64,000 nucleotides of DNA. It comes from Vicinamibacteria bacterium (GTDB taxonomy: Bacteria; Acidobacteriota; Vicinamibacteria; Marinacidobacterales; Marinacidobacteraceae). The position numbers and the translations under genes are program-made. The notes under the pieces are model-generated. The model was not told the DNA's origin. It worked only from the letters and a program-made list of their open reading frames with translations, and made no database searches. Below are positions 26,689 to 44,457 of this stretch, in pieces. Numbering within the stretch: position 1 is the first letter of the stretch; each line of letters starts with the position of its first letter. The DNA lies in contig CAXXLQ010000001.1 in the NCBI GenBank assembly GCA_963668695.2, forward strand, positions 32,001 to 96,000. The letters are read 5' to 3'.

Positions 26689-29106
26689 ATGCACCGTCAT
26701 TCGCTGATCCACAAGGTGTTCTGGAGGACCGTCGAGGCGGCCGTTTTGTTGCTGGTCGGCGCGTTCCTGGGCGCCGGCAGCGCGACCGCCGCCCAGGACG
26801 GCTCGGCTACTCCACCCACGGACCGCCGGGTTCAGGATGATCAGGACGACCTCGGGCTGTCTTCCCGTGGTTCCGGCAGGCTCGCCGACAGCCAGCAGGC
26901 GCTTGACTCGACGATGGAAAGCCGCATTCTCGGGCCGCCCGCCCCCGCGGCGGGAGAAGCCGTCAGCCGTGACGCCGACGGCCGGGTAACCCTCCGCGCC
27001 TTCCGGCTCGCCGAGCCGCTCACCGTGGACGGGATCCTCGACGACCCGGTCTACGACCAGGTGCCCGCAGCCGAGGGGTTTGTCCAGCAAGAGCCCGACG
27101 AAGGTGCGGCCGCCTCGGAGGGCACCCGCATCTGGGTGCTCTACGACACGGACAGCCTCTACATCGCCGCCGAACTCGAAGAAGACCATCCGGAGCGCCT
27201 GATGGCCAACGAGATGCGCCGCGACGCGCGGAACATCGACTGGGGCGACAGCTTCTCGGTCATCATCGACACCTTCTACGACCGCCGGAACGGCGTCCTC
27301 TTCCACACGAACGTGCTGGGCGCCCTGTTCGACGCGCAGGTGACCGACGAACGAAACGTAAACGCCGACTGGAACACGGTCTGGTGGGTGAAGAGCCACC
27401 TTCTCGACGACAGGTACACCGTGGAGATCCGAATCCCGTTCCGCTCGCTGCGTTATGCGGCCGGCGGCGCCCAGCTCTGGGGGATCAACTTCCGCCGCCG
27501 CATCAAGCACCGAAACGAACAGGCCTTCTTCACCCCGACGCCCCAGGCCTACAGCCGCGACGGATTGACCCGTCTCTCCAACGCGGCGACGCTCGTTGGC
27601 CTCGAGGCGCCCCCCGGCTCGCGAAGAATGGAACTGAAGCCGTACGCGATCGGATCCCAGAGCCACGTTCCCCTGCGGGACATCGACAACGAGTGGTCCG
27701 GCGATATCGGCGCCGACTTCAAGTTCGGCGTCACCGACGGGCTTACCGCCGACATCACCTGGAATACCGACTTCGCGCAGGTCGAGGACGACGAGACCCA
27801 GATCAACCTGAGCCGCTTCAGTCTCTTCTTCCCGGAAAAGCGCGAGTTCTTCCTCGAGGGGCAGGGGGTCTTCGACTTCGGCGGCCGGCAAACCCGCGCC
27901 CGCGCCTTCGGAGGCGGCTCCAACGATGCTCCCATCCCGTTCTTCAGCCGGTCGATCGGCATCTCGGGCGGCAGCGCGGTGCCGATTCTCGGGGGCGCCC
28001 GCCTCCACGGCCGCGCCGGCGCCTACCAGATGGGGCTCATGAACATCCAGGCCGGCGACGTGCCCGGCCTCGACGTGGAGTCCACGAACTTCAGCGCCTT
28101 CCGGATGAAGCGGGACATCTTCTCGCGCTCCAACATCGGGGTGATCGCCACCCATCGGAGCCTGAACGCCGCCGGCACCGGTTCCAACTCGCTCTACGGC
28201 GTGGACGGAGTCTTCAACCCGACCGATCACATCCGGATCAACACCTTCTACATGGCGACCAGCGAGCCCGGGGTGGACACCGGCCATCAGGCTGCCAGCT
28301 ACCTGGGCCAGTTCCGCTACGACACCGACCTGATCGATGTCACCGCCGAACGCCTCTACCTCGGCGAGGACTTCAATCCCGGGATGGGTTTCCTCCGCCG
28401 GAGCGACTTCACGAAGAACGGCGCTTCGTTCCAGTTCTCGCCGCGCCCCCGCGGCATCAAGGCGATCCGCCAGTTCGAGTTCAAGGTGGACGCGAACAAC
28501 TACGACCGTCCCGACGGCGAGATGGAGACGCGGGAATACAAGTTCGAGGCGAGGGCCGTTCTGGAGAGCAGCGACCGCATCTTCCTCGACCACACCGTGA
28601 CCGAAGAGCGTCTGCTCGGGGGGTTCGACCTCTCCAGCGAGGTCGGAGTGCCCGCCGGCAACTACCGTTTCGCCCGCACCGGGGTACGGTTGAGAATGGG
28701 ATCCCACCGCCCGTTATCGGGCTTTTTGCGTTACGAGTTCGGCGATTTCTTCGGGGGGAGCCGGCAGGAAGTGAGTTACATGGGACGCGCCGAGCTCACC
28801 CAGCGCTTTTCCGTCGAGCCGAACGTCAGCCTGAACTGGATCACCGTCCCCCAGGGTGACGTGCGGGCGACCGTGAGCTATCTCCGCGCGACGTACACCG
28901 TCTCGCCCCGCAGCTTCCTGGGCGCGCTCGTCCAGTACAACTCGGCGGCGCAACTGATGTCCGCGAACGTCCGTTTCCGCTGGGAATACTCGCCCGGTAG
29001 CGACCTGTTCGTGGTCTTCAGCACGAACCGCGACGGGGATGACGGGCTCTCCGGGCTCAGCGACCGGACGCTCGTCGTCAAGTTCACCCGCCTGTTCCGC
29101 TTCTGA
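26689..29106 (+). CDS. CBM9-like/DUF5916-type outer-membrane protein, paralog 1 (subfamily A)
   Basis: GGAGG + ATG 26689; signal peptide; 'VDGILDD', 'IRIPFRSLRY', 'WGINF', 'NTDFAQVE', 'FFPEKREFFLEG'; ends VKFTRLFRF (terminal Phe typical of beta-barrels). Confidence 0.85.
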   Translation: MHRHSLIHKVFWRTVEAAVLLLVGAFLGAGSATAAQDGSATPPTDRRVQDDQDDLGLSSRGSGRLADSQQALDSTMESRILGPPAPAAGEAVSRDADGRVTLRAFRLAEPLTVDGILDDPVYDQVPAAEGFVQQEPDEGAAASEGTRIWVLYDTDSLYIAAELEEDHPERLMANEMRRDARNIDWGDSFSVIIDTFYDRRNGVLFHTNVLGALFDAQVTDERNVNADWNTVWWVKSHLLDDRYTVEIRIPFRSLRYAAGGAQLWGINFRRRIKHRNEQAFFTPTPQAYSRDGLTRLSNAATLVGLEAPPGSRRMELKPYAIGSQSHVPLRDIDNEWSGDIGADFKFGVTDGLTADITWNTDFAQVEDDETQINLSRFSLFFPEKREFFLEGQGVFDFGGRQTRARAFGGGSNDAPIPFFSRSIGISGGSAVPILGGARLHGRAGAYQMGLMNIQAGDVPGLDVESTNFSAFRMKRDIFSRSNIGVIATHRSLNAAGTGSNSLYGVDGVFNPTDHIRINTFYMATSEPGVDTGHQAASYLGQFRYDTDLIDVTAERLYLGEDFNPGMGFLRRSDFTKNGASFQFSPRPRGIKAIRQFEFKVDANNYDRPDGEMETREYKFEARAVLESSDRIFLDHTVTEERLLGGFDLSSEVGVPAGNYRFARTGVRLRMGSHRPLSGFLRYEFGDFFGGSRQEVSYMGRAELTQRFSVEPNVSLNWITVPQGDVRATVSYLRATYTVSPRSFLGALVQYNSAAQLMSANVRFRWEYSPGSDLFVVFSTNRDGDDGLSGLSDRTLVVKFTRLFRF

Positions 29107-29312
29107 AAGGGACTTCGGACCGGCTCCCGGGTTCCGCCGCCCCTCCCCCACGTCTCTCCCCGGTTCCGCGTCACGCCTCGTTCGGGAGAAGGGCTCGTTT
29201 TGCGGCGAGCCCAGGATCTCCGCTACCCCCGGAGGACGCTCGGAATGGACGGAACCTTTCCGGTAGTCTGTTCGTTGGTCTTCGAATTCCAATTGTCTGA
29301 TCGTCGGCTCCC

Positions 29313-31754
29313 GTGATTCGCTTTTCCTCGAGTGCCCGCAAGGCGTGGCGAGCCTCCGCTGCGGGGTTTTTCTTCCTGCTGGCTGGCGGTTCACTCGTTG
29401 CCGCGGGCGCCGAACGCACGCCGGCGGAACCCGCCCCGCACCCCTCGGACCGGCGGGTCCAGAACACTCAGGACACGCAGGACGATCAGGACGATCAGGA
29501 TGACCTTGCCCTTTCGCCCCGCGGCGCGGGTCGGCTCGCCGAACCGCAGCAGGCGCCCGTCAGCTCGGCGATGGCCGAGCGGATCCTCGGCCCGCCCGCT
29601 CCCGCGGCGGGAGAAGCGGTTAGCCGCGACGCCGGCGGCCGGGTAACGCTCCGCGCGTTCCGGCTCGCCGAGCCGCTCACCGTGGACGGGGTGCTCGATG
29701 ACCCGGTGTACGACCAGGTCCCGGCGGCAGAAGGATTCCTGCAGCAGGAACCCGACGAGGGTGCTCCGGTGTCGGAGTCCACGCGCGTCTGGGTGCTCTA
29801 CGACGCGGACAGCCTCTACATCGCCGCCGAGCTGGAAGAGGACCACCCGGAGCGGCTGACGGCCGGCGAGATGCGTCGGGACCACCGAAACGTCGGCTGG
29901 AACGACAGCTTCTCGGTCATCCTCGACACCTTCTATGACCGGCGGAACGGCTTCTTGTTCCACACGAACTCCCTCGGCGCCCTGTTCGATGGCCAGGTGA
30001 CCGACGAGCGGAACACGAACAGCGATTGGAACACCGTGTGGTGGGTGAAGACTCGCCAGCTGGAGGACGGGTGGACGGTGGAGATCCGGATCCCGTTCCG
30101 CTCGCTCCGCTACGCGGCCGGCGGACCCCAGCTCTGGGGGATCAACTTCCGCCGCCTCATCAAGCACCGCAACGAACAGGTGTTCTTTACTCCGACGCCC
30201 CAGTCGTACAGCCGGAACGGACTGCTGCGGCTCTCCAACGCCGCGACGCTCGTCGGTCTCGAGGCGCCCGCCGGATCCAGGCGGATGGAACTGAAGCCGT
30301 ACGCGATCGGCTCGCAGAGCCACGTTCCCCTGAACGACGTGCTTAACGACTGGTCGGGCGACATCGGCGGCGACTTCAAGTTCGGCGTCACCGACGGGCT
30401 CACCGCCGACGTGACCTGGAACACCGACTTCGCGCAGGTCGAAGACGACGAGAGCCAGGTCAACCTGAGCCGCTTCAGCCTGTTCTACCCGGAAAAGCGC
30501 GAGTTCTTCCTCGAGGGCCAGGGGGTCTTCGACTTTGGCGGCCGGCAGTCGCGCGGCTTCGGAGGCGGCTCCGACGCTCCCATCCCGTTCTTCAGCCGGA
30601 CGATCGGCATCTCGGGCGGCAGCGCGGTTCCGATTCTCGGGGGCGGCCGGCTTCACGGCCGCACCGGCGCCTACACGATGGGCCTCATGAACATCCAGAC
30701 CGGGGAAGTGGGCGGCCTTGATGTGGAGAGCACGAACTTCAGCGCCGTCCGGGTGAAGCGGGACATCCTTTCGCGCTCCAACATCGGGGTGATCGCCACC
30801 CACCGGAACGTCGGCGCCGGCGGCTCCGGGGCGAATTCGCTCTACGGGGTGGACGGCAACTTCGCCCCGACCGACAACATCCGCATCAACACCTTCTACA
30901 TGGCGACGACCGAGCCCGGAGTCGAGAACGGGCACCAGGCCGCCACCTATATGGGCCAGTTCCGCTACGACACCGATCTGATCGATGTCACTGCCGAGCG
31001 TCTCTATCTCGGTGAGGACTTCAACCCGGGGATGGGCTTCGTCCGCCGCCGGGATTTCACGAAGAACGCCGGAAGCCTCCAGTTCTCGCCGCGCCCCCGC
31101 GGCATCAAGGCCATCCGCCAGTTCGAGTTCAAGGCCGGCGCGAAGAACTACGACCGCCCCGACGGTGAGATGGAGACCCGCGAGTACCAGGTCGACGCGC
31201 GAATCGTCTTCGAGAGCAGCGATCGCCTCATGTTCGACCACAGCGTGACCGAAGAGCGGCTCCTCGAGGGTTTCGACCTCTCGAGTGACGTTGGAATCCC
31301 CGCCGGCAACTATCGGTTCTCCCGGACCGGGGTAAGGGTGCGGATGGGATCCCATCGCTCCTTCTCGGGCATGTTCCGCTACGAGTTCGGTGACTTCTTC
31401 GGGGGCACCCGGCAACAGGTGAGTTATTGGGGACGCGCCGAGATGAACCAGCGCTTTTCCATCGAGCCGAACATCAGCCTCAACTGGATCGAGGTGCCCG
31501 GCGGCGAGGTACGGGCGCAGGTCAGCCGGCTCCGCGCCAGCTACACCGTCTCGCCCCGGAGTTTCCTGGGTGCGCTCGTCCAGTACAACTCGGCGGCGCA
31601 GCTACTTTCCGCGAACGTGCGTTTCCGCTGGGAGTATTCACCGGGCAGCGATCTCTTTGTCGTCTTCAGCACGAACCGCGACGGGGATGACGGGTTGGCG
31701 GGGCTCAGCGACCGGACGCTCGTCGTCAAGTTCACCCGTTTGTTCCGGTTTTAG
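29313..31754 (+). CDS. CBM9-like/DUF5916-type outer-membrane protein, paralog 2 (subfamily A)
   Basis: 813 aa, same motifs; QDT/QDD repeats in the N-terminal linker; a MITE starts right after the TAG stop. Confidence 0.85.
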   Translation: MIRFSSSARKAWRASAAGFFFLLAGGSLVAAGAERTPAEPAPHPSDRRVQNTQDTQDDQDDQDDLALSPRGAGRLAEPQQAPVSSAMAERILGPPAPAAGEAVSRDAGGRVTLRAFRLAEPLTVDGVLDDPVYDQVPAAEGFLQQEPDEGAPVSESTRVWVLYDADSLYIAAELEEDHPERLTAGEMRRDHRNVGWNDSFSVILDTFYDRRNGFLFHTNSLGALFDGQVTDERNTNSDWNTVWWVKTRQLEDGWTVEIRIPFRSLRYAAGGPQLWGINFRRLIKHRNEQVFFTPTPQSYSRNGLLRLSNAATLVGLEAPAGSRRMELKPYAIGSQSHVPLNDVLNDWSGDIGGDFKFGVTDGLTADVTWNTDFAQVEDDESQVNLSRFSLFYPEKREFFLEGQGVFDFGGRQSRGFGGGSDAPIPFFSRTIGISGGSAVPILGGGRLHGRTGAYTMGLMNIQTGEVGGLDVESTNFSAVRVKRDILSRSNIGVIATHRNVGAGGSGANSLYGVDGNFAPTDNIRINTFYMATTEPGVENGHQAATYMGQFRYDTDLIDVTAERLYLGEDFNPGMGFVRRRDFTKNAGSLQFSPRPRGIKAIRQFEFKAGAKNYDRPDGEMETREYQVDARIVFESSDRLMFDHSVTEERLLEGFDLSSDVGIPAGNYRFSRTGVRVRMGSHRSFSGMFRYEFGDFFGGTRQQVSYWGRAEMNQRFSIEPNISLNWIEVPGGEVRAQVSRLRASYTVSPRSFLGALVQYNSAAQLLSANVRFRWEYSPGSDLFVVFSTNRDGDDGLAGLSDRTLVVKFTRLFRF

Positions 31755-32183
31755 CAGCCCCTAGACAAGGTCGCGCGGCCCAGTTGCTGGGTAAACGCAG
31801 GTCCGACGTGCACCCACAATCTGGACGGCCGAGCCCTCGACAGAGCAGATGGCGCGCAGGCCCGGGAACGCCGGTGTTCACACCGGCACAGCGGCCCGCA
31901 GGGCCGCGGCGGTGCAGACCCCAACCGTCGGGATGGCTTCCTTCTCGGCGCGTGCCCCTCAAGGGCAGGATGGCGCGCGACAGCGGGCCCCCACCGGGAG
32001 AACTGGCCACCGGCCTCCGGCCGGCATCGCGCGGGAGCGCGAAACCTGCGGCGATGACGCCGGGCCCGGCCAACGTGAGTGCCACACCACCTTTCTCATG
32101 CGGGCGGGGTGAACGGGCGGACCCGATCATGGGGGTTTCTCCCGGTGGGGGCTCTTCGTTCGCGCGACCTTGTCTATGGGCTG
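31755..32183. mobile_element. MITE-like element between paralogs 2 and 3
   Basis: TTAG|CAGCCCCTAGACAAGGTCGCGCG ... CGCGCGACCTTGTCTATGGGCTG (23-bp near-perfect TIR); contains the REP palindrome and CCCCCACCGGGAGAACTGG. Confidence 0.75.
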
Positions 32184-32309
32184 CCGACCCGTTTTCGGAC
32201 GCCGCTCTCCGCCGTTGCGGCGCCCCCCGGAACGCGTTGGGAAGGGGGGACCAATTCCGGTAAACTGGCCGTTGGTCTTCGAGTCTCCTCGCGCCGAGTT
32301 CCGGGTGCC

Positions 32310-34796
32310 GTGCATCGCCTTTCACTGACTTCCCGCAACGTCTCGGGAGCTGCCGTCGGGTGGCTTTCCTTTCTGCTGGCGGGAGCTTCCCTGGGCGCCG
32401 CGGGGACACTCCCCGGGCCTGACGGACCCGCTCCTCCGCCCCCCCCAGATCCGGGGCCAAACCCGGGGCCAAACCCGGGGCCAAACCCGGAGTTTGACCG
32501 GCGCGTCCAGGATGATGAGGACGGCTTCGCCCGGGACGATTTCGGGATGCCGAGCCGGGGCGCGGGACGGCTCGCCGAAAACCAGCAGGCGTCCCTCAGT
32601 TCGGCCATGGCGGGCCGGATCCTCGGCCCCCCGGCGCCCGCGGCCGGGGAAGCCGTCAGCCGCGACGCCGACGGCCGGGTGACGCTGCGCGCGTTCCGGC
32701 TGGCCGAGCCGCTCACCGTGGACGGAGTGCTCGACGACCCGGTGTACGACCAGGTGCCGGCGGCGGGCGGGTTCCTGCAGCAGGAGCCCGACGAGGGTGC
32801 TCCGGCGTCGGAGTCCACGCGCGTTTGGGTGCTCTACGACGCGGACAACCTCTACATCGCCGCCGAGCTGGAAGAAGAACATCCGGAGCGCCTGATGGCC
32901 AGCGAGATGCGCCGCGACCACCGGAGCATCGGTTGGAACGACAGCTTCCAGATCGTTCTCGACACCTTCTACGATCGGCGGAACGGCTTCTTGTTCCACA
33001 CGAACGCGCTGGGCGCCCTCTTCGACGCCCAGGTAACGGACGAGCGGAACACCAACAGCGACTGGAACACCGTCTGGTGGGTGAAGAGCCAAGTGGTGGA
33101 AGAGGGGTGGACGGTGGAAATCCGGATCCCGTTCCGTTCACTCCGCTACGTCGCCGGCGGACCCCAGCTCTGGGGAATCAATTTCCAGCGCAACATCAAG
33201 CACAAGAACGAGAAGGTGTTCTTCACCCCGACGCCCCAGGCGTACAACCGGGACGGGCTGGTGCGGCTGTCGAACGCGGCGACGCTGGTGGGTCTCGAGG
33301 CCCCGGCCGGCTCGCGGCGGATGGAGCTGAAGCCCTATGCGATCGGCTCCCAGACGCACGCTCCCCTGAGGGACATCAACAACGAGTGGTCCGGCGACAT
33401 CGGCGGCGACTTCAAGTTCGGCGTCACCGACGGGCTCACCGCCGACCTCACCTGGAACACCGACTTCGCGCAGGTCGAAGACGACGAGAGCCAGGTCAAC
33501 CTGAGCCGCTTCAGCCTGTTCTACCCGGAAAAGCGCGAGTTCTTCCTTGAAGGGCAGGGGGTGTTCGACTTCGGAGGCCGGCAGACCCGGGCGTTCGGGG
33601 GTGGCGGGCCGTCCGACGCTCCCATCCCGTTCTTCAGCCGGGCGATCGGCATCTCGGGCGGCAGCTCGGTGCCGATTCTCGGGGGTGCGCGCCTCCACGG
33701 CCGCACCGGCGCCTACACGATGGGCCTCATGAACATCCAGACCGGGGAAACGGCCGGTCTGGACGTGGAGAGCACGAACTTCAGCGCCTTCCGAATGAAG
33801 CGCGACCTCTTTTCGCGCTCCAACATCGGGGTCATCGCCACCCACCGGAACATCAATGCTGACGGTTCGGGATCGAATTCGCTCTACGGGGTGGACGGCA
33901 ACTTCAACCCCAGCGACAACATCCGGATCAACTCCTTCTACATGGCGACGAGCGAGCCGGGAGTCGAAACCGGGCACCAGGCGGCCAGCTACATGGGCCA
34001 ATTCAATTACGACACCGACCTGATCGACCTGACCGCGGAGCGCCTCTACCTGGGTGAGGACTTCAATCCCGGCATGGGTTTTGTCCGCCGGCGGGATTTC
34101 ACGAAGAACGGCGCCAGCTTCCAGTTGTCCCCGCGTCCCCGCGGCATCGAGGCGATCCGGCAGTTCGAGTTGAAGTTCGACGCCAACAACTATGACCGTC
34201 CCGACGGCGAGATGGAGACGCGGAAGTACAAGTTCGAAGGAAAGGCCATCCTCGAGAGTAGCGACCGTCTCATGGTGGATCACACCATGACCGAAGAGCG
34301 CCTGCTCGACGGTTTCGACCTCTCCACCGAGGTCGCGGTTCCCGCCGGCAACTACCGCTTCAACCGTACCGGGCTCCGCCTCTGGCTGGGAACGCACCGT
34401 TCGTTCTCGGGGTACTTCCGTTACGAGTTTGGTGACTTCTTCGGCGGCACCCGCCGGGAGGTGAGCTACTGGGGACGCACCGAGGTGAGCCAGCGGCTGT
34501 CCATGGAGCCGAACATCAGCCTCAACTGGATCGAGGTGCCCGGAGGCGAGGTGCAGGCGCAGGTCAGCAGCCTCCGCGCCACCTACACGGTGTCTCCCCG
34601 CAGTTTCCTGGGCGCGCTCGTCCAGTACAACTCGGCGGCGCAACTGATGTCCGCGAACGTCCGTTTCCGCTGGGAATACTCGCCGGGCAGCGACGTGTTC
34701 GTGGTCTTCAGCACGAACCGCGACGGGGACGACGGTCTCGCCGGGCTGACCGACCGGGCGCTGGTCGTCAAGTTCACCCGGCTGTTCCGGTTCTGA
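32310..34796 (+). CDS. CBM9-like/DUF5916-type outer-membrane protein, paralog 3 (subfamily A)
   Basis: GTG 32310 chosen by homology to the paralog 1 start and by promoter spacing; (PGPN)x3 linker; same motifs. Confidence 0.85.
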   Translation: MHRLSLTSRNVSGAAVGWLSFLLAGASLGAAGTLPGPDGPAPPPPPDPGPNPGPNPGPNPEFDRRVQDDEDGFARDDFGMPSRGAGRLAENQQASLSSAMAGRILGPPAPAAGEAVSRDADGRVTLRAFRLAEPLTVDGVLDDPVYDQVPAAGGFLQQEPDEGAPASESTRVWVLYDADNLYIAAELEEEHPERLMASEMRRDHRSIGWNDSFQIVLDTFYDRRNGFLFHTNALGALFDAQVTDERNTNSDWNTVWWVKSQVVEEGWTVEIRIPFRSLRYVAGGPQLWGINFQRNIKHKNEKVFFTPTPQAYNRDGLVRLSNAATLVGLEAPAGSRRMELKPYAIGSQTHAPLRDINNEWSGDIGGDFKFGVTDGLTADLTWNTDFAQVEDDESQVNLSRFSLFYPEKREFFLEGQGVFDFGGRQTRAFGGGGPSDAPIPFFSRAIGISGGSSVPILGGARLHGRTGAYTMGLMNIQTGETAGLDVESTNFSAFRMKRDLFSRSNIGVIATHRNINADGSGSNSLYGVDGNFNPSDNIRINSFYMATSEPGVETGHQAASYMGQFNYDTDLIDLTAERLYLGEDFNPGMGFVRRRDFTKNGASFQLSPRPRGIEAIRQFELKFDANNYDRPDGEMETRKYKFEGKAILESSDRLMVDHTMTEERLLDGFDLSTEVAVPAGNYRFNRTGLRLWLGTHRSFSGYFRYEFGDFFGGTRREVSYWGRTEVSQRLSMEPNISLNWIEVPGGEVQAQVSSLRATYTVSPRSFLGALVQYNSAAQLMSANVRFRWEYSPGSDVFVVFSTNRDGDDGLAGLTDRALVVKFTRLFRF

Positions 34797-37102
34797 CGCG
34801 GGGCTCCGCACTGCCGTACGGGTGGCGTTTCGGCGCGCTCGCCGCCTGTCTGATCTGGGTCCCGGCCGCCGCTATGCCGGTGCCGGGGCAGCCCCCGCCG
34901 GCCCCCGTGATCCACGGTCCCGCGCCGCCGGACCCCCCGGCGATGATCCGGCGGGACGATCAGGGTGGCGCCACCATTCGGGCCGTCCGCCTCCAAGAGC
35001 CGCTCGACTTCGACGGCCGCCTCGATGAAGCCATCTACGAGCAGGTTCCCGGAATCAGCGATTTCATCCAGACCGAGCCGCTCGAAGGAGCACCGGCCAC
35101 CGAAAAGACCGAGGTCTGGGTCTTTTTCGACGACGAGGCGATCTACATCGCCGGACGCTGCTGGGACACCCAACCCCACCGGATCGTGGCCACCGAACTC
35201 CGGCGCGACCACGGGAGCATCTGGCTCAACCAGCACCTGGCCGTCACCTTCGACACCTTCTACGACCGCCGGAACGCCTTCATCTTTTACCTGAACCCCC
35301 TGGGCGGGTTCTTCGACGGCCTCATCACGGACGAACGGAACTTCAACCGCGACTGGACCGCGGTATGGGATTCTCGGACCGCGCGTTTCGAGGGCGGTTG
35401 GACGACCGAACTGCGGTTCCCGTTCAAGACCCTCCGCTACCCCGCCGCGGGCCCACAGGTCTGGGGCATCAACTTCCGCCGGGTCGTCCGCTGGAAGAAC
35501 GAAATCTCCTACCTGACCCGGCTCCCGGCCGCCCTCGGGATCTGGTCGATCACCAAGGTGAGTTCCTATGCGACCCTGGTCGGCCTCGAGGCGCCGCCCA
35601 GCTCCCGGACCATAGAGGTGAAGCCGTACCTCACGGGTGACGCCGCCGGGGCCCAGGTCGAGAGCGGCGTCCTCGACCGGGACTTCGGGGGCGATTTCGG
35701 GGTGGACGCCAAGGTCGGGATCACCAGCGGGCTGACTGCCGATCTGACCTGGAACACCGACTTCGCGCAGGTCGAGGCGGACGCCCAACAGATCAACCTG
35801 ACCCGTTTCAGCCTGTTCTTCCCCGAAAAGCGCGAGTTCTTTCTCGAAGGGCAGGGGCTCTTCGCCTTCGGGACCTCGGAGCGCACCCCGCGCGCCTCGA
35901 GCCGCAGGTTCGGGGCGCCGAGCAGCGTCCCGCTCCTCTTCTTCAGCCGCCGGATCGGAATCGCCGGAAACCAGGTGGCGCCGATTCGTGGCGGCGCCCG
36001 GGTGACGGGAAAACTCGGCGACTTCGGCGTCGGTGCGCTCGCGATCCGTAGCGGCGAGAGCGTCGCCGCGGGCGTCCCGGAAACCGACTTCTCGGTATTC
36101 CGGCTGAAGCGGGACATCCTGAGCCGCAGCACCGTCGGGGTGATGGGCACCTACCGCTCGGGCACCGGAGACGGCCGGGGGAGCAACGCCGCCTACGGGA
36201 TGGACGCGCGTTTCGGGTTGTATGAGAACCTCGACATCCGCAGCTACGCGGCCTGGACGCAGAACGAACACGACGACCGGACCGGCATGAGCTACCGGGG
36301 CCAGCTCGACTACCAGGCCGACCGTTACGGACTCCAATTCGAGCGGCTGGTGGTCGGCGAGGGCTTCGATCCCGGGCTCGGCTTCCTGCCCCGCCGGGAC
36401 TTCCAGCGCAACTACGCGGAGGCGCGCTTCAGTCCCCGGCCGCGCTCGATCTCCTGGCTGCGGAAGATCGGTGGGACCGGCAGTCTCGACTACACCACGG
36501 ACAACGACGGGAATCTGGAAACCCGGATCTTCGCGCTCCGGTCCGACGTCGCGTTGGAGAACGGGGACAGCGCCCAGTTCCAGTTGGCCCGGAACCGGGA
36601 GGTGCTTCACGAGGAATTCCGGCTGGCCGGCGACCTTGCGGTGGCCGCCGGCGCCCACGACTTCGACTACGCCAGCCTCAGCTACCGGGCCGGGCCCCAG
36701 CGGCCGATCTCGGGGACCTTCGCCTATCAGCAGGGCGGGTTCTTCTCGGGGACCCGGCGCGAACTCGCCTGGCGCGGCCGGCTCGAGGTCGTTCCCCACC
36801 TCATCGTCGAGCCCATCATCTCTCTGAACTGGATCGCCCTTCCGGACGGCGATTACAACACCCGGCTGGTCGCTTCGCGAATCAACTACAACCTTTCTCC
36901 CCGGAGCTTTCTTGCCGCGTTCCTCCAGTACAACACCGCCGCGAACAGCCTTTCGACGAATATCAGGTTCCGCTGGGAGTATCAGCCGGGCAGCGACATC
37001 TATCTCGTCTACAACTCGGTCCGCGACACCCTGATGCCCGGCTATCCCGAACTCGACACGCAGGCGTTCATCGTCAAGTTCACGCGTCTCTTCCGCTTCT
37101 GA
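34793..37102 (+). CDS. CBM9-like/DUF5916-type outer-membrane protein, paralog 4 (subfamily B)
   Basis: The ORF-track start 34874 lacks a signal peptide. A signal-like stretch 'WRFGALAACLIWVPAAA' is in frame upstream, reachable from CTG 34793 or 34811. Start uncertain. Confidence 0.8.
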   Translation: MTRGSALPYGWRFGALAACLIWVPAAAMPVPGQPPPAPVIHGPAPPDPPAMIRRDDQGGATIRAVRLQEPLDFDGRLDEAIYEQVPGISDFIQTEPLEGAPATEKTEVWVFFDDEAIYIAGRCWDTQPHRIVATELRRDHGSIWLNQHLAVTFDTFYDRRNAFIFYLNPLGGFFDGLITDERNFNRDWTAVWDSRTARFEGGWTTELRFPFKTLRYPAAGPQVWGINFRRVVRWKNEISYLTRLPAALGIWSITKVSSYATLVGLEAPPSSRTIEVKPYLTGDAAGAQVESGVLDRDFGGDFGVDAKVGITSGLTADLTWNTDFAQVEADAQQINLTRFSLFFPEKREFFLEGQGLFAFGTSERTPRASSRRFGAPSSVPLLFFSRRIGIAGNQVAPIRGGARVTGKLGDFGVGALAIRSGESVAAGVPETDFSVFRLKRDILSRSTVGVMGTYRSGTGDGRGSNAAYGMDARFGLYENLDIRSYAAWTQNEHDDRTGMSYRGQLDYQADRYGLQFERLVVGEGFDPGLGFLPRRDFQRNYAEARFSPRPRSISWLRKIGGTGSLDYTTDNDGNLETRIFALRSDVALENGDSAQFQLARNREVLHEEFRLAGDLAVAAGAHDFDYASLSYRAGPQRPISGTFAYQQGGFFSGTRRELAWRGRLEVVPHLIVEPIISLNWIALPDGDYNTRLVASRINYNLSPRSFLAAFLQYNTAANSLSTNIRFRWEYQPGSDIYLVYNSVRDTLMPGYPELDTQAFIVKFTRLFRF

Positions 37103-37124: not shown

Positions 37125-39458
37125 TTGGCCCGCTCCGCATTCGTTTTTCTCGTCGCGGGCGCCGTCCTGATCGCGCCGGACTTGCTGTGGGGGCAATCCG
37201 GAGACCCCGGGGAGCGCCAGGACGGGCAGCGCTCGGCGCCGGCGCCCACCTTCGCGGTGCGCGGACCCGCTCCCCCCGACCTCCCCGAGATGGTCCGCCG
37301 CGACGAGGCCGGCGGGGCCACCATGCGCGCCACCCGTCTCACCGAGCCGTTCGAACTGGACGGCCGCCTTGACGACGCCATCTACGACCGGGTGCCCGGG
37401 GTGGGCGGTTTCATCCAGGCGCTGCCCCTCGAAGGCGAACCGGCCACCGAGCCGACCGACGTCTGGGTCTTCTACGACGACGAAGCGGTGTACATCGCCG
37501 GCAGGTGCTGGGACAGCCAGCCCCACCGCATGGTGGCGACCGAGATGCGCCGGGACAACTTCGGCATCTTCAACAACGAGAATCTCGCGGTCATCCTGGA
37601 CACCTTCTACGACCGCCGGAACGCCTTCTTCTTCTACATGAACCCGATCGGCGGGTTCTTCGACGGCCTCATCGCGGACGAGAACCCCCCCAACCGGGAC
37701 TGGACCGCGGTCTGGGACTCCCGGGCGGCCCGGTTCGAAAACGGCTGGACCATGGAGATGCGGATCCCGTTCAAGACGTTGCGCTACGCGAGCGGCGGCC
37801 CCCAGGTCTGGGGGATCAACTTCCGCCGCATCGTGCGCTGGAAGAACGAGCTTTCCTTCCTCACCCGGGTCCCCGCGGCCCTCGGACCCCGTGCCATCAC
37901 CAAGATCAGTTCGGCGGGAACGCTCGTCGGCCTGGAGGCGCCCACCAGTTCCCGGACCGTCGAGGTGAAGCCCTACCTCATCGGGGACGCCGCCGGAATC
38001 CGCGCCGACGCCAGCGGGCTGGAACGGGACTACGGCGGCGACTTCGGGGTGGACGCCAAGGTCGGGATCACCAGCGGCCTCATCGCCGACCTCACCTGGA
38101 ACACCGACTTCGCCCAGGTGGAGGCCGATGCCCAGCAGATCAACCTTACCCGCTTCAGCCTCTTCTTTCCCGAGAAGCGGGAGTTCTTCCTCGAAGGGCA
38201 GGGGACCTTCAGCTTCGGCACTTCGAGCCGCAGCCCTCCCGCGGGATCGACGCGCAGCTTCGGCCCGCCCAGCAGCACCCCGGTGCTCTTCTTCAGCCGC
38301 CAGATCGGGATCGCCGGCGGTCAGGTGGTGCCCGTCCTCGGCGGGGGACGGGTGACCGGCAAGCTCGGCGACTTCGGGGTCGGGGCGCTCGCCATCCGCA
38401 CCGGAGGGAACAACGCTGCGGGTGCCCCGGAGACCGACTTCTCGGTCCTGCGGCTGAAGCGGGACATCCTGAACCGCAGCACCGTGGGCGTCATGGGCAC
38501 CTACCGCTCCCACACCGCCAGCGGGCTGGGACGGAACTTCGCCTATGGGATGGACGCCCGCTTCGGGTTCTTCGAAAACCTCACCATCCAGTCCTACGCC
38601 GCCTGGACCCAGAACGAACTCGAGGACGGGACCGGGATGAGCTACCTGGGTCAGCTCGAATACAACGGCGACCGGTACGGGCTGAAGACGGAACGGCTCG
38701 TGGTCGGAGACGGCTTCGATCCCGGCATCGGGTTCCTGCGCCGCCGGGATTTCCAGCGCAACTACGCCGAGGCGCGCTTCAGCCCCCGGCCGCATTCGAT
38801 CTCCTGGCTGCGCCAGATCGGCTGGACCGGCAGTATCGACTACACCACCGACAACGAGGCGGTCCTCGAGACCCGGATCCTCCAACTTCGAACGGAGGTC
38901 GAACTCGAAAACGGGGACCGGCTGAACGTGGACGCCGCCCGGAACCACGAGGTTCTCAGCGAAGAGTTCGTCCTGGACGCTGACGAAGGGATCGGCGTGG
39001 GGGTGGGTCCTTACGACTTCGACCACCTCAGGGTCGCCTACCAGGCGGGGCCGCAGCGTCCCATCTCGGGCAACTTCGCCTACCAGCAGGGGGGCTTCTT
39101 CTCCGGGACGCGCCGCGAGGCAGTGTGGCGCGGACGGGTCGAGGTGACGACGCGCTTCTCCCTCGAGCCCACCCTTTCGATGAACTGGATTGACCTCCCG
39201 ACCGGCGAGTACGACACCAACCTGATCGCGTCCCGGATCAACTACACGCTCTCGCCGCGCAGCTTTCTCGCAGCGTTCCTCCAGTACAACACCGCCGCGA
39301 ACAACCTCTCGACGAACGTCCGCTTCCGTTGGGAGTACGAACCGGGCAGCGACCTCTACGTCGCCTACAACTCGCTGCGGGACACCCTGGCGCCGGGCTA
39401 CCCCGAACTGAACACCCAGTCGTTCATCGTCAAGTTCACGCGTCTCTTCCGGTTCTGA
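37125..39458 (+). CDS. CBM9-like/DUF5916-type outer-membrane protein, paralog 5 (subfamily B)
   Basis: 777 aa, TTG start, signal peptide, same motifs, ends FTRLFRF. Confidence 0.85.
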   Translation: MARSAFVFLVAGAVLIAPDLLWGQSGDPGERQDGQRSAPAPTFAVRGPAPPDLPEMVRRDEAGGATMRATRLTEPFELDGRLDDAIYDRVPGVGGFIQALPLEGEPATEPTDVWVFYDDEAVYIAGRCWDSQPHRMVATEMRRDNFGIFNNENLAVILDTFYDRRNAFFFYMNPIGGFFDGLIADENPPNRDWTAVWDSRAARFENGWTMEMRIPFKTLRYASGGPQVWGINFRRIVRWKNELSFLTRVPAALGPRAITKISSAGTLVGLEAPTSSRTVEVKPYLIGDAAGIRADASGLERDYGGDFGVDAKVGITSGLIADLTWNTDFAQVEADAQQINLTRFSLFFPEKREFFLEGQGTFSFGTSSRSPPAGSTRSFGPPSSTPVLFFSRQIGIAGGQVVPVLGGGRVTGKLGDFGVGALAIRTGGNNAAGAPETDFSVLRLKRDILNRSTVGVMGTYRSHTASGLGRNFAYGMDARFGFFENLTIQSYAAWTQNELEDGTGMSYLGQLEYNGDRYGLKTERLVVGDGFDPGIGFLRRRDFQRNYAEARFSPRPHSISWLRQIGWTGSIDYTTDNEAVLETRILQLRTEVELENGDRLNVDAARNHEVLSEEFVLDADEGIGVGVGPYDFDHLRVAYQAGPQRPISGNFAYQQGGFFSGTRREAVWRGRVEVTTRFSLEPTLSMNWIDLPTGEYDTNLIASRINYTLSPRSFLAAFLQYNTAANNLSTNVRFRWEYEPGSDLYVAYNSLRDTLAPGYPELNTQSFIVKFTRLFRF

Positions 39459-39487
39459 CAAGCTGTCACTCGCCCGAGTTCTTTCTC

Positions 39488-41818
39488 TTGTTCCGCCCCG
39501 CATTCCGCTCTGTCCTCGCCGGCGCGGCCCTGATCGTTCCGGCCGTCGGTTGGACGCAGTCCGAGGAACTCGCTGACCGGCAGGACGCCCAGGGGTCGGA
39601 GCCGGCGCCCGCCTCCGTGGTGCGCGGCCCCGCGCCGCCCGACCTCCCCGAAATGGTCCGGCGCGACGAGGCCGGCGGCGCCACCATGCGCGCCACCCGC
39701 CTCGAGGGGCCCTTCGATCTCGACGGCCGTCTCGACGACGCCATCTACGACCGCGTGCCCGGCGTGGGCGGGTTCATCCAGGCCGTGCCCCTCGAAGGCG
39801 AGCCGGCGAGCGAGGCGACGGAAGTCTGGGTCTTCTACGACGACGACACCCTCTACGTCGCCGGCCGCTGCTGGGACAGCCAGCCGGACCGGATGGTGGC
39901 GAACGAGATGCGCCGGGACCACTTCGGCATCCACAACAACGAGAACCTGGCGGTCATCCTGGACACCTTCTACGACCGCCGGAACGCGTTCTTCTTCTAC
40001 CTGAATCCGATCGGCGGGTTCTTCGACGGCCTCATCACGAACGAGTTGAACGTGAACCGCGACTGGACCGCGGTCTGGGACTCGCGGGCGGCCCGGTTCG
40101 AAAACGGCTGGACGATGGAGATGGCGATCCCGTTCAAGACCCTGCGCTACGCCGGCGGCGGTCCCCAAGTCTGGGGGATCAACTTCCGCCGCATCGTGCG
40201 CTGGAAGAACGAGATGTCCTATCTGACCGGGGTTCCCGCCGCCCTCGGGCCCCGGGCGATCACCAAGATCAGCTCGGCGGGAACCCTGGTGGGGGTCGAA
40301 GCGCCGGCCAGTTCCCGTACTGTGGAAGTCAAGCCGTACCTTATCGGTGACGGCGCCGGTTCCCGCACCGGCAGCGGCTCGCTCGAAAGGGAGTACGGCG
40401 GCGACTACGGGGTGGATGCCAAGGTCGGGATCACCAGCGGGCTCACCGCCGACCTCACCTGGAACACCGATTTCGCCCAGGTGGAGGCGGATGCCCAGCA
40501 AATCAACCTCACCCGTTTCAGCCTCTTCTTCCCCGAAAAGCGGGAGTTCTTTCTGGAGGGGCAGGGGATCTTCAGCTTCGGCACCGCGTCGCGGGCGCCG
40601 CCGTCCGGATCCACGCGCTTCGGCCAGCCAAGCAGCACTCCGGTGCTCTTCTTCAGCCGTCAGGTCGGGATTGCCGGCGGCCAAGCAGTGCCGATCCTGG
40701 GTGGCGGGCGGGTGACCGGAAAGCTCGGCGACTACAGCGTCGGAGCGCTCGCGATCCGCAGCGGCGCGAGCAGCGTCGCGGGCGCCCCGGAGACCGATTT
40801 CTCGGTCCTGCGGCTGACGCGCGACATCCTGAACCGCAGCACGGTGGGCGTGATCGGGACCTACCGCTCAAACACCGCCAGCGGGCTGGGGCGGAACCTT
40901 GCCTGGGGGATGGACGCCCGGTTCGGATTCTTTGAGAATCTCGACATCCAGACCTACGCCGCCTGGACACAGAACGAACTCGAAGACAAGACCGGAATCA
41001 GCTATCTGGGCCAGCTCGACTACAACGGTGACCGGTACGGGCTCAAGGCCGAACGGCTCGCGGTCGGGGACGGATTCGATCCCGGGATCGGGTTCCTGCG
41101 CCGCCGGGACTTCCGGCGCAACTACGCCGAGGCCCGCTTCAGCCCCCGGCCGCACTCGATCTCCTGGCTCCGCAAGATCGGCTGGACCGGCAGCATCGAC
41201 TACACCACCGATAACGTAGGGAATCTCGAGACCCGGATCTTCTCGTTGCGCACCAACGTCGAACTCGAAAACGGGGACCGGTTGAATCTGAACGCCGCCC
41301 GGAACCGGGAGGTCCTGAGCGAAGAGTTCCTGCTGGATGCGGACGAAGGGATCGGCGTGGGGGTGGGCGCCTACGACTTCGACCACGTCCGCGTCAGCTA
41401 CCAGGCGGGGCCGCAGCGCCGGATCTCGGGGAACTTCGCCTATCAGCAGGGGGGCTTCTTCTCCGGGACCCGCCGGGAGGCGGCGTGGCGCGGACGCGTG
41501 GAACTCACGACGCGCTTCTCCCTCGAGCCCGCCGTTTCGCTGAACCGGATCGCGCTCCCGACGGGCGACTACAACACCGGCCTGCTCGCGTCCCGGATCA
41601 ACTACACGCTCTCGCCCCGCAGCTTCCTCGCGGCTTATTTCCAGTACAACACCGCCGCGAACAGCCTCTCGACGAACATCCGTTTCCGCTGGGAGTACGA
41701 GCCGGGGAGCGACTTCTTCGTCGTCTACAACTCGCTGCGGGACACGCTCGTGCCCGGGTATCCCGAGTTGAACACGCAGTCACTCATCGCCAAGTTCACG
41801 CGGCTCTTCCGGTTCTGA
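39488..41818 (+). CDS. CBM9-like/DUF5916-type outer-membrane protein, paralog 6 (subfamily B)
   Basis: TTG 39488 is homologous to the TTG starts of paralogs 5 and 7; same motifs. Confidence 0.85.
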   Translation: MFRPAFRSVLAGAALIVPAVGWTQSEELADRQDAQGSEPAPASVVRGPAPPDLPEMVRRDEAGGATMRATRLEGPFDLDGRLDDAIYDRVPGVGGFIQAVPLEGEPASEATEVWVFYDDDTLYVAGRCWDSQPDRMVANEMRRDHFGIHNNENLAVILDTFYDRRNAFFFYLNPIGGFFDGLITNELNVNRDWTAVWDSRAARFENGWTMEMAIPFKTLRYAGGGPQVWGINFRRIVRWKNEMSYLTGVPAALGPRAITKISSAGTLVGVEAPASSRTVEVKPYLIGDGAGSRTGSGSLEREYGGDYGVDAKVGITSGLTADLTWNTDFAQVEADAQQINLTRFSLFFPEKREFFLEGQGIFSFGTASRAPPSGSTRFGQPSSTPVLFFSRQVGIAGGQAVPILGGGRVTGKLGDYSVGALAIRSGASSVAGAPETDFSVLRLTRDILNRSTVGVIGTYRSNTASGLGRNLAWGMDARFGFFENLDIQTYAAWTQNELEDKTGISYLGQLDYNGDRYGLKAERLAVGDGFDPGIGFLRRRDFRRNYAEARFSPRPHSISWLRKIGWTGSIDYTTDNVGNLETRIFSLRTNVELENGDRLNLNAARNREVLSEEFLLDADEGIGVGVGAYDFDHVRVSYQAGPQRRISGNFAYQQGGFFSGTRREAAWRGRVELTTRFSLEPAVSLNRIALPTGDYNTGLLASRINYTLSPRSFLAAYFQYNTAANSLSTNIRFRWEYEPGSDFFVVYNSLRDTLVPGYPELNTQSLIAKFTRLFRF

Positions 41819-41870
41819 AGGGCGCCGCGAAACCGCGCGTCGCCGGTGGAGAGAAAGCGCGGGGACGGCC

Positions 41871-42081
41871 GGGAACGCCGGTCTTCAGACCGGCACAGCG
41901 GCCCCGAGGGCCGCGGCGGTGAGGAAGCCAACCGTTGAAGTGGTTCCCGTCTCGGCACGTACCCCCAACAGTTAAGACGACCTGGCAAGACGGCCTGGCA
42001 GGCACGGGAGCCCCCACCGGGAGGACTGGGCCGACCTCCGGCCGGTTCTCCCGGTGCTCACGCCACTTTGTCCACAGGCCG
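41871..42081. repeat. Degenerate relative of the 31755-32183 element
   Basis: REP palindrome + GCGGCCC..GGGCCGC hairpin + CCCCCACCGGGAGGACTGGG + right-end-like ACTTTGTCCACAGGCCG; left end not recognised. Confidence 0.55.
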
Positions 42082-42129
42082 CTGACGCGGATCCCGGCGT
42101 AGAGTTCCGCGACCTTCCGATTTCCCGTC

Positions 42130-44457
42130 TTGGCCCGCTACGCGTTCCGTCTTCTCCTCGCCGGCACTGCTCTGATCGTTCCGGCCTCGGGGTGGGGGCA
42201 GTCTGGAGAACTCGCGGAACGCCCGGACGGTCAGGGCTCGGCGCCGGAGCCGGCCTTCGTGGTGCGGGGTCCCGCGCCTCCCGACCTGCCCGAGATGGTG
42301 CGCCGCGACGACGCCGGCGGCGCCACCATGCGCGCCACCCGCCTGACGGAACCGCTCGAATTCGACGGCCGCCTCGACGATGCCATCTACGAACGCGTTC
42401 CGGGCGTCAGCGGCTTTATCCAGGCGCTCCCCCTTGAAGGCGAACCCGCCACCGAAGACACCGAGGTGTGGGTGTTTTTCGACGACGAAGCCGTTTACGT
42501 GGCCGGGAGGAACTGGGACAGCCAACCTGACCGGATGGTGGCCACCGAGATGCGGCGCGACAACTTCGGCATCTTCAACAACGAAAACCTCGCGGTCATT
42601 CTCGACACCTTCTACGATCGCCGGAACGCCTTCTTCTTCTACATGAATCCCATCGGGGGCTTCTTCGACGGCCTCATCGTGGACGAGCGGAGCGTGAACC
42701 GCGACTGGACCGCGGTCTGGGACTCGCGGGCGGCCCGGTTCGAAAACGGCTGGACGATGGAGATGCGAATCCCTTTCAAGACCCTGCGCTACGTCCGGGG
42801 CGGCCCGCAGGTCTGGGGCATCAACTTCCGCCGGGTGGTTCGCTGGAAGAACGAAATGTCGTACCTGACGCAGGTCCCGGCGGCGCTCGGGCCGCGCGGC
42901 ATCACCAAGATCAGCTCGGCGGGCACCCTGGTGGGACTCGAAGCGCCGGCGAGCTCCCGGACGATTGAGGTGAAGCCGTACCTCATTGGGGACGCCGCCG
43001 GCGCCCGGATCGAGAGCGGCGCCCTCGACCGGGATTTCGGGGGCGATTTCGGGTTGGACGCGAAGGTCGGCATCACCAGCGGGCTCACCGCGGATCTGAC
43101 CTACAACACCGACTTCGCCCAGGTCGAAGCCGACGCCCAGCAGATCAACCTCACCCGGTTCAGCCTTTTCTTCCCCGAAAAACGCGAGTTCTTCCTCGAA
43201 GGGCAGGGAATCTTCGATTTCGGCACCTCAAGCCGCGGTGCGCCGCCGGGGTCGACGCGCAGCTTCGGGCCGCCGAGCAGCACGCCGGTGCTGTTCTTCA
43301 GCCGCCGGATCGGCATCGAGGCCGGGCAGGCGGTGCCCATCACGGGCGGCGCCCGGGTCACCGGGAAGCTCGGCGACTACAACGTGGGGGCGATTGCCAT
43401 CCGCAGCGGCGAGAGCACCGCCGCCGGGTCTCCGGAAACTGATTTTTCGGTGTTCCGGTTGAAGCGGGACATCCTGAACCGCAGCACGGTCGGCGTGATG
43501 GGGACGTACCGCTCGCACACCGCGAGTGGCCTGGGACAGAACTTCGCCTACGGGATGGATGCCGGGTTTGGCTTCTTCGAACATCTGGACATCCGCAGCT
43601 ACGCGGCCTGGACGCAGAACGAACTCGAGGACGAGACCGGGCTGAGCTATCTCGGCCAGGTGGACTACAACGGCGACCGCTACGGGCTCCAGGCCGAGCG
43701 CCTGGTGGTCGGGGACGAATTCGATCCGGGGATCGGGTTCATACGCCGCCTGGACTTCCAGCGGAACTACGCCGAGGCCCGGTTCAGTCCCCGGCCGCAT
43801 TCGATCTCCTGGCTCCGCAAGGTGGGCTGGACCGGCAGCGTGGACTACACGACGGATAACGAGGGGGTGCTCGAGACCCGGATTTTCGGCTTCCGCTACG
43901 ACATGGAGTTCGAGAACGGGGACAACTTCAACCTGAATGCGACGCGGAACCGCGAGGTGCTGAGCGAATCGTTTTCCCTGAGCGACGACCTCGGCGTGGC
44001 GCCCGGGACCTACGACTTCGACTACGTGCGGCTCAGCTACCAGGCCGGCCCGCAGCGCCCCATCTCGGGCAACTTCGCCTACCAGCAGGGCGGATTCTTT
44101 TCCGGGACCCGCCGGGAGGCTGCCTGGCGCGGCCGGGTCGAAGTCATGCCTCGCGTGACGGTCGAGCCCTTGGTTTCCCTGAACTGGATCTCACTTCCCG
44201 AGGGGAACTACGACACCAACCTGCTCGCGTCCCGGATCAACTACACCCTCTCTCCCCGGAGCTTCCTCGCGGCGTTCCTCCAGTACAACACCGCCGCGAA
44301 CAGCCTTTCGACGAACGTTCGCTTCCGCTGGGAATACGAGCCGGGGAGTGACCTCTACGTCGTCTACAACTCGCTCCGCGACACCCTGGCGCCCGGCTAC
44401 CCGGAACTGAACGCCCAGTCGTTCATCGTCAAGTTCACCCGGCTATTCCGGTTCTGA
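42130..44457 (+). CDS. CBM9-like/DUF5916-type outer-membrane protein, paralog 7 (subfamily B)
   Basis: 775 aa, TTG start, same motifs. Confidence 0.85.
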   Translation: MARYAFRLLLAGTALIVPASGWGQSGELAERPDGQGSAPEPAFVVRGPAPPDLPEMVRRDDAGGATMRATRLTEPLEFDGRLDDAIYERVPGVSGFIQALPLEGEPATEDTEVWVFFDDEAVYVAGRNWDSQPDRMVATEMRRDNFGIFNNENLAVILDTFYDRRNAFFFYMNPIGGFFDGLIVDERSVNRDWTAVWDSRAARFENGWTMEMRIPFKTLRYVRGGPQVWGINFRRVVRWKNEMSYLTQVPAALGPRGITKISSAGTLVGLEAPASSRTIEVKPYLIGDAAGARIESGALDRDFGGDFGLDAKVGITSGLTADLTYNTDFAQVEADAQQINLTRFSLFFPEKREFFLEGQGIFDFGTSSRGAPPGSTRSFGPPSSTPVLFFSRRIGIEAGQAVPITGGARVTGKLGDYNVGAIAIRSGESTAAGSPETDFSVFRLKRDILNRSTVGVMGTYRSHTASGLGQNFAYGMDAGFGFFEHLDIRSYAAWTQNELEDETGLSYLGQVDYNGDRYGLQAERLVVGDEFDPGIGFIRRLDFQRNYAEARFSPRPHSISWLRKVGWTGSVDYTTDNEGVLETRIFGFRYDMEFENGDNFNLNATRNREVLSESFSLSDDLGVAPGTYDFDYVRLSYQAGPQRPISGNFAYQQGGFFSGTRREAAWRGRVEVMPRVTVEPLVSLNWISLPEGNYDTNLLASRINYTLSPRSFLAAFLQYNTAANSLSTNVRFRWEYEPGSDLYVVYNSLRDTLAPGYPELNAQSFIVKFTRLFRF

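Follow-up and report, generated by a model that had tools for sequence, protein, structure and literature searches.

What do the seven similar outer membrane-type proteins encoded side by side in a Vicinamibacteria genome do, and is their array a system of its own? The locus lies in a stretch of 64,000 nucleotides (GenBank assembly GCA_963668695.2, contig CAXXLQ010000001.1, positions 32,001 to 96,000), which is called the window throughout and whose numbering is used for all positions. The open reading frame (ORF) list and a protein alignment confirmed what a first-pass annotation had noted from the letters: the segment 26551-44457 carries seven intact, co-oriented DUF5916 paralogs on the plus strand (742-905 aa, longest-frame lengths), which share the C-terminal sequence KFTRLFRF and form two subfamilies, A (genes 1-3) and B (genes 4-7), with ~81% identity to gene 1 within and 45-46% between them. 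The core motifs NTDFAQVE and PEKREFFLEGQG are invariant in 7/7 proteins, except for one Y/F position preceding PEK, and the seven octamers following the RRD motif read exactly as quoted. No gene other than the paralogs occurs inside the array in this window and hence, as annotated, no TonB, hydrolase or regulator gene. As to function, we regard it as about evenly balanced whether each protein is an independent plugged channel, in which a solute would pass along an insert in loop 2 and meet a periplasmic lid with a paralog-specific pocket. Residue numbers below refer to gene 7 counted from 42130 unless stated; numbers in structural model 1 equal those of gene 7 minus 23, and numbers in model 2 those of gene 1 minus 77.

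The cut-off of Pfam family DUF5916 (PF19313) is passed by 7/7 proteins (45-62 bits versus 22.6), with only profile positions 4-87 of 572 matched, and CBM9_1 (PF06452) matches weakly, above cut-off in 1/7. Comparison with the ESM Atlas gave 0.99 to DUF5916 clusters, and NCBIfam holds no family for the paralogs. The Pfam combination of DUF5916 with an N-terminal CBM9_1 domain has the same architecture, motifs and length, so that the array differs only by its tandem expansion; NCBI names the same proteins ‘DUF5916 domain-containing protein’ or ‘carbohydrate binding family 9 domain-containing protein’. In keeping with the annotation's remark that the family is functionally uncharacterised, neither a function nor a solved structure was found for it. 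Literature naming DUF5916 or PF19313 was not found either in a search whose scope left out most subscription journals, and wider literature searches, at the level of search results, returned no description of the family. The proteins thus belong to a family that is catalogued but lacks a described function, and the array itself is an ordinary paralog expansion.

Two AlphaFold models give both parts of the architecture that the first-pass annotation had proposed and wished to see checked, a sugar-binding-type domain and a beta-barrel. Model 1 represents gene 7 (81 sequences; predicted local distance difference test score (pLDDT) 82.7, predicted template modelling score (pTM) 0.82) and model 2 the core of gene 1 (122 sequences; pLDDT 93.1, pTM 0.91). 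In both, a beta-sandwich is predicted to be followed by a six-residue link, three strands, an insert of ~75 residues and 21 further strands, which together make a 24-strand barrel. The N-terminal domain resembles CBM9 (Foldseek E 9.7e-8; VIA Z 18.4 for model 1 and 19.2 for model 2 to 1i82, 178 residues aligned), the fold being alike in CBM9-2 of Thermotoga maritima Xyn10A (1i82) and in 7nwn and 4jpq (Z 18-21, root-mean-square deviation (rmsd) 2.5-2.8). Comparison of the barrel with many large barrels yielded Z 14-18 at rmsd 4-8, so that it has no close solved relative among those listed; a PDB sequence search with a profile of the seven paralogs gave no significant match.

The barrel has the features of an outer membrane protein: a signal peptide (judged by eye, as for all paralogs), an amphipathic barrel with an even number of strands, most of which alternate polar and apolar faces, a C-terminal aromatic residue (F in 82/122 family members) and diderm hosts. 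Turns after even strands comprise 2-5 residues, bar one of nine, and loops after odd strands reach up to 9-15 residues in the first two thirds. In outer membrane barrels an even strand count and short periplasmic turns place both ends in the periplasm. By this rule, the sandwich is predicted to be periplasmic, not surface-exposed, and the insert to form extracellular loop 2. The annotation's proposal of surface receptors displaying a binding domain is not borne out by this topology.

The insert consists of coil and short helices in model 2. Its core is highly conserved: 27/40 columns are at least 90% conserved among 122 sequences with a mean column identity of 35%, and the ratio of nonsynonymous to synonymous differences (pN/pS) among orthologs is 0.02. 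When model 2 was overlaid on TonB-dependent transporters, 15/26 rows started in the insert core (residues 283-290), which sat on plug residues 35-72 in most rows and on residue 190 in one. A further 10/26 rows started in the N-terminal domain, always either at 95-104 (post-RRD loop) or at 140-150 (DER hairpin), and in some of these the start fell on plug residues at the far N-terminus, as for 104 on BtuB residue 4; 1/26 started in strand 3. With model 1, 10/17 rows started in the insert, on plug residues, and seven at 122-127, 159-165 or 232-235. In both models, rows starting in the N-terminal domain were confined to the post-RRD loop, the DER hairpin or the 250-260 helix. These overlays suggest that the insert fills the lumen and that the post-RRD loop and one or two neighbouring variable loops reach the periplasmic mouth of the barrel.

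Where, then, do the paralogs differ? When a profile of 56 N-terminal domains was aligned with 1i82 (E 0.0003), the NSNPWEQDS motif fell on the post-RRD stretch and Trp71 on F149. The mapping of variable columns that the annotation called for thus puts the post-RRD stretch on the ligand-clamp loop of CBM9. In CBM9-2, Trp71 and Trp175 clamp the sugar, and Gln96 and Asn172 bond to it (PMC8280721). Counted from alignments, Gln96 maps to residue 169 and Trp175 near 258-259, the latter by hand to within one residue because the profile comparison with canonical CBM9 spans only the first 175 columns. The equivalent of Gln96 is hydrophobic (L, I, F). The Trp71 column reads D, G, G, W, F, H and F in genes 1-7 and is aromatic in 18/56 diverse members, and the Trp175 region holds I/L/T/V; thus the classical two-aromatic clamp is not kept, and sugar binding by the CBM9-fold domain is doubtful. 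Unlike CBM9-2, the array domains are moreover fused to a barrel and predicted to be periplasmic. The annotation's view of the variable aromatics as a sugar-binding site therefore survives in part: they do lie at the CBM9 clamp and are paralog-specific, but the Trp-Trp pair is missing. Among 122 members, the mapped clamp columns are very variable and columns 151, 234 and 242 are conserved, so that the domain, judged from these alignments, appears to be a variable pocket on a fixed frame.

The octamer following RRD differs by 0.45/0.37 between paralog groups and 0.04/0.07 within them, compared to protein-wide values of 0.21/0.17 and 0.08/0.08. Column 149 is diagnostic in both subfamilies. Among orthologs, the octamer is near-fixed (HFGIHNNE in 11/11, HGSIWLNQ in 13/14), gene 3 being more varied. 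Being near-fixed among orthologs yet different between paralogs, it shows a specificity-determining pattern rather than that of an arms race, which agrees with specificity differences of long standing and not with evasion of phages or hosts. Between paralogs, its pN/pS is 1.42 (B) and 0.72 (A) as compared to ~0.27-0.30 in strands and N-terminal domain, a ratio that is noisy because the octamer comprises eight codons. Ranked by between-paralog divergence among 708 eight-residue windows, the post-RRD stretch comes 13th (B) and 29th (A), and the loop of the insert 8th (B) and 38th (A).

According to the plugged-channel explanation, the 24-strand barrel is a predicted outer membrane solute channel, which would likely be plugged by the conserved second loop of the same chain, i.e. 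the insert. The solute would move through the barrel along this insert, and the CBM9-fold lid, capping the barrel from the periplasm, would select the cargo by means of its paralog-specific pocket. Gating may be exerted by the insert, without a classical TonB plug. Uptake would be the likelier direction of transport, and each paralog may handle a different small cargo, which is probably not a plain cello- or xylo-oligosaccharide since the clamp tryptophans are not kept. More tentatively, DUF5916 as a whole may be an undescribed, very large class of outer membrane transporters that unite a channel and a periplasmic CBM9-fold binding domain in one chain, under a loop-plugged 24-strand pore; this genome has 15 copies of the family versus ~18 TonB-dependent receptor-like ORFs. 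If so, the seven-gene array would offer a natural set of specificity variants, with pocket residues that could be read off the CBM9 clamp, and a lid-gated solute channel would be a missing class of outer membrane transport among the dominant bacteria of soils, seas and sponges. The interest thus lies in an unstudied barrel family more than in the array, which is an entry to that family.

Several points weigh against this explanation. The geometry derives from first-aligned residues of overlays at rmsd 4-5.6 Å, not from coordinates, and the loop of the insert is the least confident part of the models (pLDDT <50 at 346-356 in model 1 and 329-331 in model 2). The noise in the octamer ratio counts here as well, as do divergence peaks of equal height in barrel strands 14-16 (residues ~587-620); the annotation's statement that variation concentrates at a few sites holds insofar as the post-RRD stretch and the insert loop are among the top peaks, and fails insofar as they share this rank. 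A set of five CBM9 cleft positions is enriched over the domain average in paralog divergence in one register (p 0.006-0.007), but only at p 0.06-0.13 on a one-residue shift, and the register was chosen after the covariation result. That analysis, mutual information with average product correction (MI-APC) on 352 sequences with an effective number of 135, mainly reflected phylogeny and yielded no inter-domain contacts that could be used. Furthermore, the many invariant Asp, Glu and Arg residues would also fit an enzyme. The genomic context offers no family-wide neighbour, the commonest cluster being present at 13/77 loci and a TonB-type receptor at 7/77, and three or four of ten annotated regions are uninformative.

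To what extent the paralogs are old and stable can be read from related genomes. The locus was retrieved from 12 of 15 same-genus genomes: eight have seven genes (one with a split first gene), one has six, and in three the locus is interrupted by the end of a contig. Beyond the genus but within the family, arrays of 2, 2, 2, 2, 3, 3, 4 and 6 genes occur in 8/9 genomes, always with an A and a B member, so that copy number, which the annotation had proposed to compare, ranges from 2 to 7 within the family. In a tree of 106/127 ORFs (21 were lost to motif-based trimming, including most from distant genomes), genes 3, 4, 5, 6 and 7 cluster by paralog across genomes, and genes 1 and 2 form several smaller clades. 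The array is inherited largely gene-for-gene within the genus; the seven genes go back to old tandem duplications of a DUF5916 gene that works alone, and the array is its local expansion, from two to seven copies within one family. Throughout the genus, two groups of genomes differ in whether the gene-5 or the gene-6 clade comes first. In seven relatives (G001, G004, G006, G008, G016, G018 and G023; loci L011-L041), non-family genes lie between array members and resemble, from their translations, antitoxin-like helix-turn-helix, restriction-modification and ankyrin proteins. A genome of another family (G027, L043-L044) has an eight-gene DUF5916 array, one member of which is in the tree; it is 45-49% identical to both subfamilies and therefore probably an independent expansion. 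In pairwise counts against the respective gene of the window, the ratio of nonsynonymous to synonymous substitution rates (dN/dS) was defined for 67 of 68 ortholog pairs and lies at 0.05-0.35 in each of them, and ortholog pN/pS is 0.02-0.25 across all nine regions. The dN/dS check suggested by the annotation, carried out pairwise rather than site-wise, thus shows purifying selection in every region tested.

These data bear on the annotation's second idea, namely that the paralogs are phage- or host-evasion variants whose diversity is kept by positive selection or gene conversion. The outer loops are indeed the most variable part of the barrel among orthologs, where pN/pS peaks at 0.25. Antigenic variation or contingency would entail positive selection or frequent gene conversion among copies, and the pairwise counts reveal neither: purifying selection prevails in 67/67 defined pairs, identical runs of at least 90 bases occur in only 4/259 within-genome paralog pairs, and differences between two haplotypes of the array are largely synonymous, with none at the two named variable sites. 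Evasion is thereby already largely refuted, and we consider it extremely improbable. Receptors or adhesins for glycans of a host such as a sponge would be in line with a CBM9 fold with paralog-specific clamp residues and with the expansion in one lineage; yet, by the general rule for outer membrane barrels, a periplasmic position of the domain follows from the even strand count, the turn pattern and the link of six residues that leads into strand 1, and the family is common outside hosts, which makes this role highly improbable.

A periplasmic domain immediately preceding a large barrel could also mean that the lid recognises peptidoglycan or some other glycan or lipid of the envelope, and that the barrel either serves as an anchor for the outer membrane or exports the bound molecule, similar to LptD. 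LptD chains are top Foldseek matches of the barrel, though at TM ~0.3 and rmsd ~20, the family occurs in 136/151 genomes of the phylum, and there is a precedent for a periplasmic CBM9-like sensor in Shewanella PghK, whose domain is proposed to sense peptidoglycan fragments (10.1101/2023.05.05.539549). However, 15 paralogs per genome with differing pockets would be superfluous if all bound one envelope ligand, the loops that carry the pocket are directed towards the lumen in the overlays, and no polysaccharide-synthesis genes are among the recurring neighbours identified, so that we rate an envelope role as unlikely. Distinctly unlikely is an outer membrane enzyme with a buried active site, built from the invariant acidic and basic residues of lid and insert, and with a different substrate for each paralog. 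It would account for 18 invariant and many near-invariant columns in lid and insert, rich in D, E and R, and perhaps for the old label ‘membrane associated hydrolase’, which we presume was given to such proteins. On the other hand, no hydrolase fold or family match was obtained with Pfam, PDB, NCBIfam, Foldseek or VIA, the charged residues also fit calcium sites or lid-plug salt bridges, and the one paper listed with that phrase concerns an archaeon. Finally, the proteins could represent a new architecture of TonB-dependent transporter, to which the TonB systems of the genome would supply energy in trans; the genome has 18 TonB-dependent receptor-like ORFs, the lumen is predicted to be plugged, and in some rows loops of the lid coincide with the position of the Ton box. 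TonB-dependent transporter barrels have 22 strands. BtuB, Cir, Fiu and PirA are likewise large plugged barrels (overlays at Z 14-17, rmsd 4-5.6), whereas the array proteins are predicted to have 24 strands, a plug formed by the internal loop-2 insert instead of an N-terminal domain, and an extra periplasmic lid, which would block access. Neither a Plug nor a TonB-receptor Pfam match is found in the seven proteins, and no conserved motif precedes the lid. We hold this variant to be very unlikely.

The plugged channel also has to be set against ushers. PapC and FimD, like MtrB, are large barrels resembling those of the array (Z 15-18; 7-11% identity for the group of ushers, MtrB and LptD). Ushers have 24 strands and a plug inserted in the barrel sequence, as predicted here, but the array insert follows strand 3 and is made of coil and short helices rather than a beta-sandwich. 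No pilin or chaperone genes are among the window neighbours, and annotated neighbours include no pilin, chaperone, cytochrome or Lpt genes.

The family reaches far beyond the array. Matches occur in 41/41 relatives, with 14-19 per near-complete genome of the genus, and eight of the 15 copies in this genome are scattered outside the array. PF19313 is absent from 14 control model genomes (0/14); the count for the phylum given above takes in one unpublished genome (G064). Bacteroidota, Gemmatimonadota and marine Gammaproteobacteria also harbour the family, whose size is at least 8000 (8000/8000 scored candidates match). At 70/77 loci from many lineages, a single copy is present within 5 kb. The annotation's view of the array as an undescribed system of its own is thus not supported: eight copies lie elsewhere in the genome, most family members are solitary and most paralogs have a promoter-like site of their own. 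Plasmid records with a match number 29, all from diderm genera; phage records gave no match. In the ten annotated regions, a solute-binding protein stands in the same co-oriented run in two (one with an ATP-binding cassette transporter, one with the glycoside hydrolase (GH) GH88), two adjoin glycoside hydrolases (GH88; GH20 plus sulfatase), and one each follows an arsenic operon, lies by a resistance-nodulation-division (RND) pump or lies by a nonribosomal peptide synthetase (NRPS) cluster. Long fusions number two among 7999 candidates, which is weak evidence. On an Alteromonas plasmid (L152), the annotation divides a member beside an NRPS cluster into two genes close to where lid and barrel meet.

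Is the array real? The annotation had raised an assembly concatenation of strain alleles, which is ruled out by a second haplotype, by 58-86% DNA identity among the paralogs and by the arrays in related genomes. The assembly has four contigs, and that of the window (C1) is a second haplotype of part of a 3.9-Mb contig (C4), ~99.5% identical (C1 versus C4:304184-421223); window 26841-50326 matches it at 99.7%, and the seven genes are present in both haplotypes. The differences within the array are scattered, except at the 5' end of gene 1. Short-read contigs of one run, which may be the source sample, span the 3/4 and 4/5 gene junctions. Contigs C2 and C3 also duplicate parts of C4, and these duplications, together with C1, may explain the contamination figure of 9%. 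Upstream of the array, the window carries two tRNA-Val genes (10532-10606 and 18398-18470) with a partial duplication of an RND efflux pump, present in one copy in C4. The 8.6 kb from the second tRNA-Val to gene 1 include an integrase fragment; C4 has 3.3 kb in its place, and the 5' end of gene 1 differs with it (region 12623-26841).

With regard to expression, a TAnnnT hexamer following three G/C bases occupies a fixed place before 39/45 A-type genes (mean 16, maximum 25 in 200 shuffles) and before 25/57 B-type genes, suggesting that the array likely comprises several transcription units rather than one operon. A strict sigma-70 scan returned 0 sites. An extracytoplasmic function (ECF) sigma promoter, GGAAC-N17-CGTT, had five window matches versus 0.76 expected; it was rejected as there is no genome-wide excess (40 versus 39-70 at other spacings) and as the part conserved in relatives is the TAnnnT hexamer. 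This sequence stands directly before both RND adaptor genes (window 10383-10408 and 18335-18360, minus strand). Contigs of two metatranscriptome runs from one study cover parts of the array; since contigs cannot show transcription, they were discarded as evidence. Rows labelled sponge metagenome contain next to none of the array's words.

Coordinates are compiled in the table, in which each gene begins at its likely start. Gene 4 looks truncated only because its likely CTG start overlaps the gene 3 stop; the same arrangement, with a hydrophobic frame open across it, recurs in 8/9 genomes checked.

Table. Genes, predicted protein parts and promoter-like sites of the DUF5916 array (window positions)
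Feature	Position	Strand	Basis and remarks
-10-like hexamer TACACT, gene 1	26641..26646	+	sigma-70-like; position conserved in relatives; putative function
Gene 1, subfamily A	26689..29106	+	signal peptide, CBM9-fold domain, 24-strand barrel with loop-2 insert predicted; core modelled (model 2)
-10-like hexamer TAGTCT, gene 2	29264..29269	+	comparison with relatives; putative function
Gene 2, subfamily A	29313..31754	+	ORF, DUF5916 match, paralog alignment
-10-like hexamer TAAACT, gene 3	32261..32266	+	comparison with relatives; putative function
Gene 3, subfamily A	32310..34796	+	likely GTG start 32310 (ORF-finder start 32079), as judged by similarity to gene 1 and by the -10 site 44 bases before it
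Gene 4, subfamily B	34793..37102	+	likely CTG start in overlap CTGA, giving signal-peptide-like start
Gene 5, subfamily B	37125..39458	+	ORF, DUF5916 match, paralog alignment
Gene 6, subfamily B	39488..41818	+	likely TTG start 39488, from likeness to genes 5 and 7
-10-like hexamer TAGAGT, gene 7	42100..42105	+	comparison with relatives; putative function
Gene 7, subfamily B	42130..44457	+	ORF, DUF5916 match; model 1
Gene 7 CBM9-fold domain, residues 57-272	42298..42945	+	VIA match to 1i82 at rmsd 2.6; predicted periplasmic from topology
Gene 7 post-RRD octamer, residues 145-152	42562..42585	+	F149 aligns to Trp71 of CBM9-2; paralog-diagnostic
Gene 7 76-residue insert, barrel strands 3-4	43111..43338	+	conserved DFAQVE..PEKREFFLEG core, variable loop, FFSRRIG; predicted lumen plug

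Downstream of the array, two small membrane-anchored-looking proteins are encoded on the minus strand (45278-45835 and 45842-46612), which are found behind the array in 15/24 and 17/24 compared regions, respectively, and for which no family match was obtained, NCBIfam included. The spacers contain a dispersed repeat (window 26425-26560, 31850-32150 and 41840-42090) with 50 to >100 matches on the 3.9-Mb contig.

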